Source: Shigella phage JK36
Reading direction: 5' to 3' (one strand)
Sequence record: MK962754.1
DNA: 64,000 bases
Part shown: piece after piece, positions 11,469 through 12,299 of the stretch
Numbering within the stretch: position 1 is the stretch's first letter
Layout of the letters: every line of letters begins with the position of its first letter
Translations under genes and position numbers: made by a program
The notes under the pieces: generated by a model
Seen by the model: only the letters and a program-made list of their open reading frames with translations
What the model was told of the DNA's origin: nothing
Databases searched by the model: none

Positions 11469-11544
11469 TGGTCGAGACAGTAGGGATCGAACCTACGACC
11501 TAGGACTTAGAAGGTCCTTGCTCTTCCTTCTGAGCTATGCCTCG
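11469..11544 (-). tRNA. tRNA-Arg (anticodon TCT)
   Basis: Hand-folded cloverleaf on minus strand: acceptor CGAGGCA/TGTCTCG, T-loop GGTTCGATCC, anticodon loop CTTCTAA, CCA encoded. Confidence 0.8.
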
Positions 11545-11548
11545 TATT

Positions 11549-11623
11549 TGGCGGACGTGATAGGATTCGAACCTATAACCAATCGCTTAACAGGCGATCG
11601 CTCTGCCATTGAGCTACACATCC
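11549..11623 (-). tRNA. tRNA-Asn (anticodon GTT)
   Basis: Acceptor GGATGTG/CACGTCC, T-loop GGTTCGAATCC, anticodon loop CTGTTAA, CCA encoded; not in T4's set. Confidence 0.75.
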
Positions 11624-11627
11624 AAAT

Positions 11628-11714
11628 TGGTGGGGAGTGATGGAGTCGAACCACCCGAGTCGCAATGACAATGGATTTACAGTCCACACCGCTACCTCTA
11701 CGGGATAACTCCCC
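11628..11714 (-). tRNA. tRNA-Tyr (anticodon GTA), long variable arm
   Basis: Acceptor GGGGAGT/ACTCCCC, anticodon loop CTGTAAA, long variable arm, CCA encoded; not in T4's set. Confidence 0.75.
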
Positions 11715-11726
11715 TAATTCATAATT

Positions 11727-11801
11727 TGGTGGCCCTGGGTGGAATTGAACCACCATCTGGCGATTATGAGTCGCTTGCTTGAACCTTCCAGCTACAGGGC
11801 C
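11727..11801 (-). tRNA. tRNA with anticodon CAT (Met, or Ile2 if lysidinylated)
   Basis: Acceptor GGCCCTG/CAGGGCC, T-arm GGTGGTTCAATTCCACC, anticodon loop CTCATAA. Confidence 0.7.
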
Positions 11802-11802
11802 T

Positions 11803-11878
11803 TGGTGCTGATTGACGGAATCGAACCGCCGACCTTCTCATTACAAGTGAGTTGCTCTACCTACTGAGCTAAATCAGC
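11803..11878 (-). tRNA. tRNA-Thr (anticodon TGT)
   Basis: Acceptor GCTGATT/AATCAGC, T-loop GGTTCGATTCC, anticodon loop CTTGTAA. Confidence 0.8.
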
Positions 11879-11883
11879 AAAAC

Positions 11884-11973
11884 TGGCGGAGGCGATAGGA
11901 TTTGAACCTATGAGTCGCCGGAGCGACTGCCGGTTTTCAAGACCGGTGCATTAAACCACTCTGCCACGCCTCC
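11884..11973 (-). tRNA. tRNA-Ser (anticodon TGA), long variable arm
   Basis: Acceptor GGAGGCG/CGCCTCC, anticodon loop CTTGAAA, long variable arm, CCA encoded. Confidence 0.8.
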
Positions 11974-11975
11974 AG

Positions 11976-12049
11976 TCTCCATACAAGGATTTGAACCTTG
12001 GACCTCCTGATCCCAAATCAGGCGCTCTACCAAACTGAGCTACACGGAG
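11976..12049 (-). tRNA. tRNA-Pro (anticodon TGG), CCA not encoded
   Basis: Acceptor CTCCGTG/TATGGAG, anticodon loop TTTGGGA; 3' end followed by CTG not CCA. Confidence 0.75.
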
Positions 12050-12059
12050 TAAATTAAAT

Positions 12060-12133
12060 TGGAGCGGATAATGAGAATCGAACTCACATCATCAGATTGG
12101 AAGTCTGAGGTAATGCCATTATACGATATCCGC
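12060..12133 (-). tRNA. tRNA-Gly (anticodon TCC)
   Basis: Acceptor GCGGATA/TATCCGC, T-loop GTTCGATTC, anticodon loop CTTCCAA. Confidence 0.8.
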
Positions 12134-12138
12134 AAATT

Positions 12139-12225
12139 TGGTGCGAGAAGTGGGACTCGAACCCACAAGGAAATCATTCCGCAGCATTTTAAGTGCTGTG
12201 CCTTTACCAATTTGGCCATTCTCGC
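12139..12225 (-). tRNA. tRNA-Leu (anticodon TAA), long variable arm
   Basis: Acceptor GCGAGAA/TTCTCGC, anticodon loop CTTAAAA, long variable arm. Confidence 0.8.
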
Positions 12226-12226
12226 G

Positions 12227-12299
12227 CTGGGAATAAAGGACTCGAACCTTTGCATCCTGGAATCAAAATCCAGTGCCTTACCAACTTGGCTAATTCCCA
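12227..12299 (-). tRNA. tRNA-Gln (anticodon TTG), CCA not encoded; 1 nt from tRNA-Leu
   Basis: Acceptor TGGGAAT/ATTCCCA, T-arm AAGGTTCGAGTCCTTT, anticodon loop TTTTGAT. Confidence 0.75.

Follow-up and report, generated by a model that had tools for sequence, protein, structure and literature searches.

The tRNA genes of bacteriophage T4 are dispensable on laboratory hosts. The region has also been called non-essential, and the CAT-Tyr-Asn-Arg half of the array analyzed here was described in 2008 for phage T2L, whose listed genes are Gln, Leu, Gly, Pro, Ser, Met(CAT), Tyr, Asn and Arg (PMC2330249). In T4, segB was concluded to be a recent acquisition whose homing replaces genes of the Tyr/Asn region; SegB cleaves nine T2L tRNA genes at their 3′ ends, and its homing excludes the T2L alleles (PMC2330249). 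In T4, dimeric precursors give rise to six of the eight tRNAs, and RNase P favors a Ser 3′ end in CCA over one in UAA (PMC11143913). Phage tRNAs have been linked to defense: Septu cleaves tRNA-Tyr, higher dosage of T6 tRNA-Tyr rescues infection, T4, which has no tRNA-Tyr, cannot escape, and deletion of the T6 tRNA region sensitizes the phage (Chihara et al. 2026, PMC13096335). The PARIS nuclease AriB cuts the host tRNAs for Lys (UUU anticodon), Thr (UGU) and Asn (GUU) between positions 40 and 41, beside U36-A-A-U39, and a change of U39 to A abolishes cleavage (PMC12409363).

We analyzed a 64-kb window (64,000 nt) of Shigella phage JK36 (MK962754.1). Across the entire window, ARAGORN identified ten tRNA genes and no others; all are minus-strand and fall within positions 11469-12299, and it drew a cloverleaf for each of the ten. 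The Rfam tRNA model RF00005 (gathering score 29 bits) accepted 10/10 genes, nine with 59.9-74.1 bits (E 5e-12 to 6.5e-16) and Tyr marginally, with 30.2 bits. The first-pass annotation had proposed ten minus-strand tRNAs with this span, order and set of anticodons and had named a tRNA-finder run as the check; ARAGORN on the 64 kb returned the same genes with the same anticodons, and Rfam agrees. Its intergenic spacer range of 1-12 nt was reproduced when we read the spacers from the sequence, and the 3′ end sequences bear out its claim that Gln and Pro have no encoded CCA, which is present in the other eight of the ten genes. Sub-threshold Rfam matches to Plastid-ycf2, sX4 and YrlA overlap tRNA genes and were set aside as chance or tRNA-like. 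The ten tRNA genes are genuine and canonical, and the array is real but ordinary, as previously published.

The operon runs Gln-Leu-Gly-Pro-Ser-Thr-Ile2(CAT)-Tyr-Asn-Arg, followed by a small ORF, rnaD and rnaC, all on the minus strand. It shares with T4 its genome position, the middle promoter PtRNAsc1, the terminator, the first six tRNAs, rnaD and rnaC. Among these six, Leu, Gly, Pro, Ser and Thr are 96-100% identical to their T4 counterparts: tRNA-Leu(UAA) (12139-12225; RF00005 64 bits; CCA encoded) at 86/87 positions, tRNA-Gly(UCC) (12060-12133; 63.3 bits; CCA encoded) at 73/74, tRNA-Pro(UGG) (11975-12049; 66.8 bits; no encoded CCA) at 74/74, tRNA-Ser(UGA) (11884-11973; 62.6 bits; CCA encoded) at 87/87 up to the discriminator, after which the window has CCA and T4 has TAA, and tRNA-Thr(UGU) (11803-11878; 72.9 bits; CCA encoded) at 73/76. 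tRNA-Gln(UUG) (12226-12299; 67.4 bits) matches T4 at 65/73 positions, with every difference confined to the anticodon arm; its anticodon loop, UUUUGAU, is that of E. coli glnU, whereas the T4 loop is CUUUGAC, so the Gln anticodon arm is by sequence a different allele from that of T4.

The second half of the array departs from T4. The CAT tRNA, a predicted tRNA-Ile2 (11727-11801; 59.9 bits; CCA encoded), matches T4 tRNA-Ile at 47/72 positions; its gene is 100% identical to those of T2, Bas42 and p000y and 99% to that of FV3, against 61-65% for T4 and T6. tRNA-Tyr(GUA) (11628-11714; 30.2 bits; CCA encoded) has a long variable arm and owes its low Rfam score to a poor D-stem. Minimum-free-energy folding gives it no cloverleaf (z = -0.9 versus -2.2 for E. 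coli tyrU, to which it is 60% identical). The Tyr gene is 98-99% identical to those of T2 (99%), T6 (98%) and Bas42, 97% to that of rV5-like FV3 and 80% to that of a T5-like phage, with which it shares the variable arm completely and the T arm for the most part. tRNA-Asn(GUU) (11549-11623; 74.1 bits; CCA encoded) is 100% identical to T2, 3′ flank included. tRNA-Arg(UCU) (11469-11544; 66 bits; CCA encoded) is a T2-type allele, 100% identical to ST0 and mar005P1, 97% to T2 and Bas42, 75% to p000y and APCEc01, and 50% to T4 and T6. Compared with T4 tRNA-Arg, it matches at 50/69. Unlike the window, T4 carries segB in place of Tyr and Asn, has no CCA in its Ile gene, and places rnaD directly after Arg. 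The cluster is consequently not of the T4 type. The initial description of the array as the T4 set plus Asn and Tyr therefore holds for Gln through Thr, which are T4 orthologues, and fails for CAT and Arg, which are different alleles; the direction implied by calling Asn and Tyr additions is doubtful, as T4 has at that place the segB that it acquired recently according to PMC2330249.

The closest match is instead the T2L/RB1/RB3 cluster (Brok-Volchanskaya et al. 2008, PMC2330249; EMBL AJ880101, AJ884577, AJ884578), with which the window agrees in gene set, order and the lack of segB. CAT (100%), Asn (100%), Tyr (99%) and Arg (97%) are near-identical to the T2 genome, and the primer sequences given for T2L in PMC2330249 fit the Asn, Tyr, Arg and CAT genes of the window. 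The window departs from T2 as follows: where the T2 genome record shows an ORF between Ser and CAT, the window carries Thr instead and lacks that ORF; its Gln anticodon arm is of the Bas42/p000y allele, not that of T2; and the backbone is that of a Mosigvirus rather than a Tequatrovirus. With T6 it shares the Tyr gene, including the variable arm with the Septu cut site C48, but T6 has segB beside Tyr, allowing tandem amplification, and is without Pro, Ser and Asn. Phage ST0 carries identical copies (100%) of the ten genes, and p000y is annotated with the same set; among phage records, 365 span at least 80% of the region and 377 span the CAT-Tyr-Asn-Arg half. The array is therefore already known, published in 2008 and annotated in many genomes, and as a discovery it matters little, being present in hundreds of sequenced phages and under experimental study. 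It has some annotation value, in that the ST0 record carries no tRNA features though its ten genes are identical to those of the window.

The ten genes are embedded in a larger operon; the first-pass annotation was right about the tRNAs and missed the promoter, the embedded ORF, rnaD, rnaC and the terminator. Alignment conservation, consensus and T4 homology together predict a middle, MotA-dependent promoter at 12369-12393 (minus strand), with the MotA box TGCTTTA at 12393-12387, a 12-nt spacer, a -10 element TATTAT at 12374-12369 and a predicted start at about 12362. The box in its context, ATATGCTTTA, followed after 12 nt by TATTAT, agrees with the published consensus (a/t)(a/t)(a/t)TGCTTtA at 12±1 bp from the -10 element (PMC2988021). 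In alignment, the promoter is invariant among the window, T4, T2, T6, Bas42 and p000y, also when another ORF lies upstream of it, and it aligns without gaps with the mapped T4 PtRNAE/PtRNAsc1 (start 72593), which lies 63 nt upstream of T4 tRNA-Gln; the homologue in the window also lies 63 nt upstream of Gln. A sigma-70-like site at 12434-12406 from a promoter scan is not conserved in T2 or Bas42, and scanner counts did not exceed those of shuffled sequence; this site was dropped in favor of the MotA-type promoter.

Downstream of the array, between tRNA-Arg and rnaD, lies a 114-aa ORF of unknown function (11106-11450, minus strand; phrog_3355, E 4.8e-50), present in T2, Bas42, APCEc01 and mar005P1 and absent from T4 and T6. 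No Pfam family was found for this ORF or its neighbors, and their PHROG matches were only to families of unknown function. The T4 rnaD homologue (species 2 small stable RNA; 10991-11109, minus strand) is identical to T4 at 104/120 positions, and the rnaC homologue (species 1; 10845-10983, minus strand) at 137/139. The rnaC homologue has a tRNA-like T-arm near its 3′ end. We considered whether T4 rnaC and rnaD could have decayed from Tyr and Asn genes; aligned locally with the ten tRNAs, they scored only 7-14, and the idea is further undone by the true homologues downstream at 10845-11109. A terminator-like hairpin followed by a T-run at 10773-10788 (minus strand), conserved in T4, T2, T6 and p000y by alignment, is the probable end of the operon.

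What we propose for transcription, processing, modification, charging and phenotype in JK36 draws on sequence and on analogy with T4 and T6. By that analogy, a single precursor covering the unit would be made in the middle (pre-replicative) period. As in T4, Gln abuts Leu, Pro abuts Ser and Thr abuts CAT, in keeping with the T4-like dimeric pairing proposed earlier: the Gln gene ends in G73 and a single C before Leu +1, the Pro gene in A73 and CU before Ser +1, and Thr is separated from CAT by 1 nt. Host RNase P would cut every tRNA 5′ end, thereby freeing the 3′ ends of Gln, Pro and Thr; host exonucleases would trim the 3′ ends, and the host CCA-adding enzyme would finish Gln and Pro. Since CCA is encoded in Ser, the best-known processing dependency of T4, in which Ser is 3′-trimmed and receives its CCA ahead of RNase P cleavage, would be unneeded here.

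The backbone places the locus among Mosigviruses. APCEc01 and mar005P1 match the window at 99.2-99.5% identity across the compared structural genes (window 30000-50000) and at 97-98% on either side of the tRNA locus, they carry the same ORF after Arg, and the Arg allele of mar005P1 is that of the window. Their tRNA complement at this locus is limited to a T4-type Ile(CAT) and Arg, and they carry an additional 171-aa ORF; in the window, nine tRNAs are additional or replaced, and these lie on a Tequatrovirus-like patch of about 1.4 kb. Because these close Mosigviruses have only two tRNAs at the locus, the tRNA block has probably been exchanged by recombination. Taken together, the evidence supports a T-even tRNA operon on a Mosigvirus backbone, in the endonuclease-free "T2/RB-type" form and with functions in codon supply, Tyr buffering and allele exchange as proposed here, a reading to which we assign a probability of roughly 85%.

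The earlier suggestion that the extra tRNAs reflect codon adaptation or evasion of tRNA-targeting nucleases fares best for Tyr, as the 98%-identical T6 gene counters Septu. By analogy with that rescuing gene, the window Tyr would at least buffer against the Tyr-cutting Septu and retron-Eco7 PtuAB nucleases. The T6 tRNA-Tyr is itself cut by Septu at C48 (PMC13096335), so any protection would come from dosage rather than resistance, and the window gene is identical to T6 at C48 and in the variable arm. We found no SegB homologue or other homing-endonuclease gene in the 64-kb window (tblastn with T4 and T6 SegB as queries); the tandem-amplification escape route is thus unavailable from this tRNA locus.

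For PARIS, the bearing of Asn and Thr is a sequence-level hint only. The window Asn reads UAAG39-C40|G41, with GCGAU as the 3′ strand of its anticodon stem against UCCGU in the host, and the window Thr reads UAAU-G40|A41 against UAAUC|A at positions 36-41 of host thrU; substitutions at the AriB site, as compared with host asnT and thrU, are therefore G39 and G41 in Asn and G40 in Thr. A complete PARIS counter-set would include tRNA-Lys(UUU), and ARAGORN found no tRNA-Lys in the 64-kb window. Mutations in the anticodon loop have been proposed as a sign of nuclease evasion (PMC10264068). Such a sign is unsupported here, since the loops match the host: no loop change was found in Tyr, Asn, Thr, Arg, Gly, Pro, Ser, Gln or CAT, Leu alone differs (position 32), and other differences are confined to stems.

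These observations bear on whether Tyr and Asn, along with His in relatives, are retained chiefly as an anti-defense kit, the phage tRNAs replacing or diluting host tRNAs destroyed by abortive-infection nucleases, with codon supply secondary. The T6 result at raised dosage, the substitutions around the AriB cut site, the near-identity of the Tyr gene across unrelated phage families and the presence of tRNA-His in relatives of a phage that under-uses His all point this way. Against it stand the missing tRNA-Lys(UUU), the prime PARIS target, the PARIS sensitivity of T4 despite the same G40 tRNA-Thr (PMC12409363), the cleavable C48, and the fact that Tyr and Asn are among the most over-used amino acids, which supply explains equally well. 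On balance, we regard this account as a serious possibility that falls somewhat short of even odds.

The opposite emphasis, in which the array only fits the tRNA pool to an AT-rich proteome and any defense effect is incidental, was evaluated in a rough comparison of 63 window ORFs of at least 100 aa, picked by length without overlaps, with 28 genes of E. coli K-12, a reference from which the true host may differ. In this comparison, the A-ending codons exactly matched by the eight T4-type tRNAs are all enriched, by 1.28-4.28x; Tyr (1.46x) and Asn (1.35x) rank second and third after Lys (1.54x), and the window has a G+C content of 38.3%. In the preferred operon reading too, the eight tRNAs with wobble U34 or lysidine would supply A-ending codons over-used by an AT-rich phage, and Tyr and Asn would raise supply for two of its most over-used amino acids. 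Supply alone nevertheless does not explain the gene content, because Lys, the most over-used, has no tRNA and His, used at only 0.67x, has one in relatives. Mosigviruses 99% identical in the compared structural genes get by with two tRNAs, and a defense role has been demonstrated experimentally for the T6 Tyr gene (PMC13096335). We therefore consider supply as the sole explanation unlikely. Ten- and two-tRNA Mosigviruses, about 99% identical in those structural genes, form a clean natural comparison, and such a pair could gauge the contribution of the array to codon supply or to protection from tRNA-cutting defenses.

A more ambitious version of the defense account treats the CAT-Tyr-Asn(-His)-Arg half as a horizontally mobile anti-defense tRNA cassette, in which Asn (G39/G41) and the neighboring Thr (G40) would resist AriB and a Tyr shared by T-even, rV5-like and T5-like phages would counter PtuAB nucleases. 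It strikes us as doubtful, with perhaps one chance in four left to it in our judgment. If true, it would mean that SegB-type endonucleases target these very genes, setting a selfish element against phage counter-defense. An intact preferred SegB recognition site of 27 bp, GGTTCGAATCCTATCACGTCCGCCAAA, lies inside the Asn gene (11547-11573, minus strand) and is identical to T2; it differs from the weaker site in Ser at exactly five positions (G6, A16, G18, A26 and A27), the five diagnostic positions named in PMC2330249.

Homing also underlies the view that the gene content has little selective meaning and is a by-product of recombination and endonuclease traffic in a dispensable region. Arrays do differ among T4, T2, T6, Bas42, the window and the two-tRNA Mosigviruses, and wherever tRNA genes are missing, their exact places are taken by endonuclease genes or ORFs. 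In Bas42, a 115-nt gap precedes His and gave no Rfam match. The exclusion of T2L alleles by SegB homing (PMC2330249) and the stretch at about 11545-13013 that resembles Tequatrovirus DNA within a Mosigvirus backbone are also consistent with such traffic. Set against this are tRNA genes conserved at 97-100% across genera and even families, with cloverleaves and identity elements intact; conservation of individual genes across families argues for purifying selection on each, and we judge the by-product view improbable. The preferred reading of a T2/RB-type operon includes the traffic itself, with the array as one of several interchangeable T-even alleles shuffled by recombination and SegB-type homing.

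The identity of the CAT tRNA, left as Met or Ile2 by the first-pass annotation, was addressed by comparing lysidine determinants. E. coli TilS recognizes the identity pairs 4:69 and 5:68 (PMC11947777), and the CAT tRNA has C4:G69 and C5:G68 as in E. coli ileX, where metT has U4:A69 and A5:U68. E. coli TilS is impaired by anticodon-stem substitutions; here the CAT tRNA matches ileX at 4/5 pairs and metT at one (A31:U39), and positions 28-42 (15 nt) are those of ileX, with pairs 28-31/39-42 shared. The CAU anticodon, the anticodon loop, C3:G70 and A73 are also as in ileX, and overall identity is 76% to ileX versus 58-63% to metT. It differs from ileX in that this overall identity is only 76%, in its 4-nt variable loop and 3-bp D-stem, and in pair 27:43, which is A.C rather than G.U. 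The initiator tRNA-fMet features, a 1:72 mismatch and three G:C pairs closing the anticodon stem, are absent from the CAT tRNA, which has G1:C72 and the stem AGCGA/UCGCC, as compared with C1.A72 and GGG/CCC in E. coli metV. This signature favors a tRNA-Ile2 with lysidine determinants, predicted to read AUA, over a tRNA-Met; host TilS would convert C34 into lysidine, leading to Ile charging and AUA reading.

That the gene encodes an elongator tRNA-Met is very unlikely: its CAU anticodon would read AUG if unmodified, ARAGORN calls it Met, and so do the T2, T6, p000y and FV3 records and both papers (PMC2330249, PMC13096335), but ARAGORN calls every CAT anticodon Met, even the annotated tRNA-Ile of T4, the acceptor pairs, anticodon stem and overall identity are all nearer to ileX, the Bas42 (codon ATA), RB14 and RB51 records label the same gene Ile, and phage use of ATG is not raised (1.00x) while that of ATA is doubled (1.98x). 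The label of the CAT gene thus varies by pipeline among Met, Ile, Xle and OTHER, and the sequence evidence favors Ile2.

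Running ARAGORN over all 64 kb of the window revealed ten tRNA genes and no others. All ten lie within 11469-12299 on the minus strand, in the order Gln(ttg), Leu(taa), Gly(tcc), Pro(tgg), Ser(tga), Thr(tgt), a gene with a CAT anticodon (CAT), Tyr(gta), Asn(gtt) and Arg(tct). Their number, span, order and anticodons are those given by the first-pass annotation, and inspection of the gene flanks bore out its 1-12-nt spacers and its reading that Gln and Pro lack an encoded CCA, which the other eight genes carry. Gln ends in G73-C with Leu directly after it, and Pro in A73-CU followed by Ser. 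All ten genes pass the curated threshold of the Rfam tRNA covariance model (29 bits), nine at 59.9-74.1 bits and Tyr at only 30.2 bits, the latter because of a D-stem whose four pairs include one mismatch and one G.U, together with a variable-arm stem of only 3 bp. By thermodynamics alone, Tyr yields no cloverleaf (z = -0.9), and E. coli tyrU folds as one (z = -2.2). The ten-tRNA observation holds up, well above chance, and its interpretation is partly right, failing where the array was described as the T4 set plus two genes.

In T4, the region runs Gln-Leu-Gly-Pro-Ser-Thr-Ile, then segB, Arg, rnaD and rnaC (T4 genome annotation). Pro (74/74) and Ser (87/87) are identical to their T4 counterparts, Ser being followed by CCA in the window and by TAA in T4, and Leu (86/87), Gly (73/74) and Thr (73/76) are nearly so; in Gln (65/73), all differences fall within the anticodon arm, compensatory changes among them. 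CAT and Arg, in contrast, diverge strongly, matching T4 Ile at 47/72 positions (with only the first 12 nt in common) and T4 Arg at 50/69. On these gene-by-gene identities, the array is not the T4 set enlarged by two genes, but switches to a different module within the body of the CAT gene. For tRNA-Gln (12226-12299), two alleles exist that are distinguished by the anticodon arm alone, where stem changes compensate one another. An E. coli-like loop (UUUUGAU) is common to the window, p000y and Bas42; in T4 and T6, the loop CUUUGAC sits on another stem, and T2 combines CUUUGAC with a stem one position off that of T4 and T6.

The module has been seen before. In the 2008 study of the homing endonuclease SegB, sequencing of the tRNA regions from T2L, RB1 and RB3 showed that segB is missing and that "four extra tRNA genes" are present, namely Met(CAT), Tyr, Asn and Arg (PMC2330249). 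The window contains matches to the T2L primers of that study for Asn, Tyr, Arg and the anticodon arm of CAT. Compared with the T2 genome record, CAT and Asn are each 100% identical, Tyr 99% and Arg 97%. Matching records in the phage collection number 365 for the whole region (at least 80% coverage) and 377 for its CAT-Tyr-Asn-Arg half, with T2, RB14, RB51 and many recent isolates among them. Neither the type of array nor this particular member is new: a genome already deposited contains identical genes, and the module, described in 2008 (PMC2330249), was the subject of a functional study in 2026 (PMC13096335). Our modest additions are a better-supported Ile2 assignment, the full operon extent, an intact SegB target, evidence of inter-genus exchange and a testable hint of possible AriB resistance of Asn and Thr.

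ARAGORN labels any CAT anticodon Met, T4's annotated tRNA-Ile included, and database labels of the CAT gene vary by pipeline (Met, Ile, Xle or OTHER), with Tyr also at times given as OTHER. An initiator function for the CAT tRNA (11727-11801) was ruled out, as G1:C72 is present and the GGG/CCC anticodon stem is absent. Overall identity is 76%, nearly gap-free, to E. coli ileX versus 58-63% to metT; the 15 nt of the anticodon stem-loop are identical to ileX and differ from metT, and the discriminator A73 is common to all three. Pairs 4:69 and 5:68, the major identity elements of E. coli TilS (PMC11947777), are both C:G in the CAT tRNA and ileX, unlike the U:A and A:U of metT, so that the lysidine-determinant check proposed in the first pass sides with ileX. 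Relative to a sample of 28 E. coli K-12 genes, ATA is enriched 1.98x in the window ORFs and ATG is unchanged. We consider it highly probable (about 0.85) that the CAT tRNA is Ile2, the lysidine-type tRNA-Ile reading AUA.

Across the structural genes (30000-50000), the window shows 99.5% identity to Escherichia phage APCEc01 and 99.2% to mar005P1, two RB69-like T-even phages of the genus Mosigvirus. The tRNA region matches phage ST0 most closely (98.7%), with all ten tRNA genes 100% identical, and p000y, also a Mosigvirus, carries the same ten genes, annotated. The GenBank record of ST0 (MF044457) lists no tRNA features despite the identical genes, as do several other genomes. APCEc01 and mar005P1, by contrast, carry an additional ORF at the locus ahead of just two tRNAs, a T4-type Ile(CAT) and Arg. 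The window is collinear with APCEc01 at 97% up to ~11545 and again from 13013; the intervening segment is unmatched or just 82-87% identical, and mar005P1 likewise diverges there, though these Mosigviruses are otherwise 97-99% identical. The same segment reaches identities of 94% with T4, 96-97% with T2 and 98-99% with Bas42; the flanking protein genes reach only ~70-80% with these phages. High identity to these three phages and a poor match to APCEc01 argue that ~1.4 kb of Tequatrovirus-like DNA, comprising nine tRNAs, the trna.2 ORF and part of trna.3, is set in a Mosigvirus backbone. This patch looks like inter-genus recombination that swapped the tRNA module, and, as far as Mosigvirus is concerned, the ten-gene array has the look of an acquisition. 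Arg is dimorphic within the genus, the window, ST0 and mar005P1 sharing one allele and p000y and APCEc01 the other (75% identical to that of the window).

Comparison of arrays indicates that the tRNA locus is highly polymorphic, with endonuclease genes marking the gaps. T4 has segB where Tyr and Asn would be; T6 lacks Pro and Ser and carries Tyr, then segB, then a T4-type Arg; an ORF replaces Thr in T2; and Bas42 has a homing-endonuclease gene in place of Pro and an additional His. The window array is complete at ten tRNAs with zero endonuclease genes, and tblastn with SegB and the Bas42 endonuclease found no match within the 64 kb. The preferred 27-bp SegB site, located inside tRNA-Asn of T2L (PMC2330249), is intact at 11573-11547 (GGTTCGAATCCTATCACGTCCGCCAAA) and departs from the weaker Ser site by exactly the five named differences, G6, A16, G18, A26 and A27 (PMC2330249); this makes the window genome a recipient allele in SegB homing. 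Since the gain of segB by T4 has been argued to be recent (PMC2330249), the earlier view of Tyr and Asn as additions becomes the less probable direction of change where Tequatroviruses are concerned.

The operon also appears larger than 11469-12299. A MotA box (TGCTTTA, 12393-12387, minus strand) opens the sequence conserved upstream of Gln in six of six phages compared and, with a 12-nt spacer and TATTAT on the -10 side (12374-12369, minus), agrees with the T4 middle-promoter consensus (PMC2988021). The mapped T4 middle promoter PtRNAE (PtRNAsc1) starts at 72593 (PMC2988021), 63 nt upstream of T4 tRNA-Gln, a position that aligns without gaps to window 12362. A sigma-70-like site from the promoter scanner was rejected as not conserved. 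Between tRNA-Arg and rnaD lies a 114-aa ORF (11106-11450, minus) whose stop codon overlaps the first rnaD bases; it matched no Pfam family and only PHROG 3355, whose function is unknown. T2, Bas42, APCEc01 and mar005P1 have this ORF; T4 and T6 do not. The rnaD (10991-11109, minus; 104/120 identical to T4) and rnaC (10845-10983, minus; 137/139) homologues correspond to T4 small stable RNAs of unknown function and are conserved far above the neighbouring protein genes. No Rfam family covers them (10845-11109); rnaC bears a tRNA-like T-arm (GGTTCGAATCC) close to its 3' end, and a conserved hairpin with a T-run follows downstream (10788-10773, minus).

Six of the eight T4 tRNAs arise via dimeric precursors, neither tRNA of the Pro-Ser dimer has CCA, and RNase P favours CCA over UAA at the Ser 3' end (PMC11143913). 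The window retains the abutting pairs Gln-Leu, Pro-Ser and Thr-CAT and, because the partners abut, RNase P cutting at the downstream tRNA would also free its upstream partner, after which Gln and Pro would require the host CCA-adding enzyme. As Ser and the CAT tRNA encode CCA, the array should be less reliant than that of T4 on host 3' trimming and CCA addition.

The window has a G+C content of 38.3%, and the A-ending codons of the eight T4-type tRNAs are enriched 1.28-4.28x over the 28-gene E. coli K-12 sample, a rough reference that may not reflect the usage of the real host. Tyr (1.46x) and Asn (1.35x) rank second and third among over-used amino acids by that measure, yet Lys, the most enriched, has no phage tRNA, and His is depleted though relatives carry tRNA-His. 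For Tyr, defence is another candidate role: Septu (PtuAB) cleaves the variable arm of tRNA-Tyr, additional T6 tRNA-Tyr copies rescue infection, deletion of its tRNA region sensitises T6, and T4, without a Tyr gene, cannot escape (PMC13096335). The window Tyr is 98% identical to that of T6, with an identical variable arm including the cleaved C48, so any protection would act by dosage rather than resistance; T6 amplifies its tRNA-Tyr gene via segB, which the window lacks. Host Lys(UUU), Thr(UGU) and Asn(GUU) are substrates of the PARIS nuclease AriB, which cuts them beside U36-A-A-U39, between positions 40 and 41, and no longer does so when U39 is changed (PMC12409363). The window sequences there, UAAG39-C40/G41 in Asn and UAAU-G40/A41 in Thr, are suggestive, and both tRNAs may be AriB-resistant; against this, the array has no tRNA-Lys, T4 stays PARIS-sensitive though its Thr also has G40, and the Tyr and Asn anticodon loops are the same as the host's.

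Related genes occur well beyond the T-even phages. In rV5-like FV3, Tyr is 97% identical and the abutting Thr-CAT pair is kept (CAT 99% identical); in a T5-like phage, Tyr is 80% identical, the variable arm being unchanged throughout and the T arm mostly so. At the loci compared, these phage families share no other DNA similarity that could be detected, so the tRNA genes have moved horizontally among phage groups. Arrays containing His show an Asn-His spacer of ~115 nt, far above all other spacers (1666-1779 in Bas42, 4431-4544 in locus L020); that of Bas42 gave no tRNA call and no Rfam match. Between Ser and Thr, rV5-like arrays contain a 97-99-nt ARAGORN "tRNA-???" with a four-base anticodon (atcc; comparison loci L006 2668-2766, L023 1714-1812 and L024 270-367), which may be an unusual or decayed tRNA, the FV3 copy scoring 35.5 bits as a tRNA with Rfam. 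Bare Arg-Tyr pairs lie on 117-140-kb viral metagenome contigs, Tyr (exact 26-nt 5' match) occurring as an Arg(tct)-Tyr pair on IMG/VR contigs L021, L025, L026 and L027, which suggests that Arg-Tyr is a small unit travelling between phage lineages.
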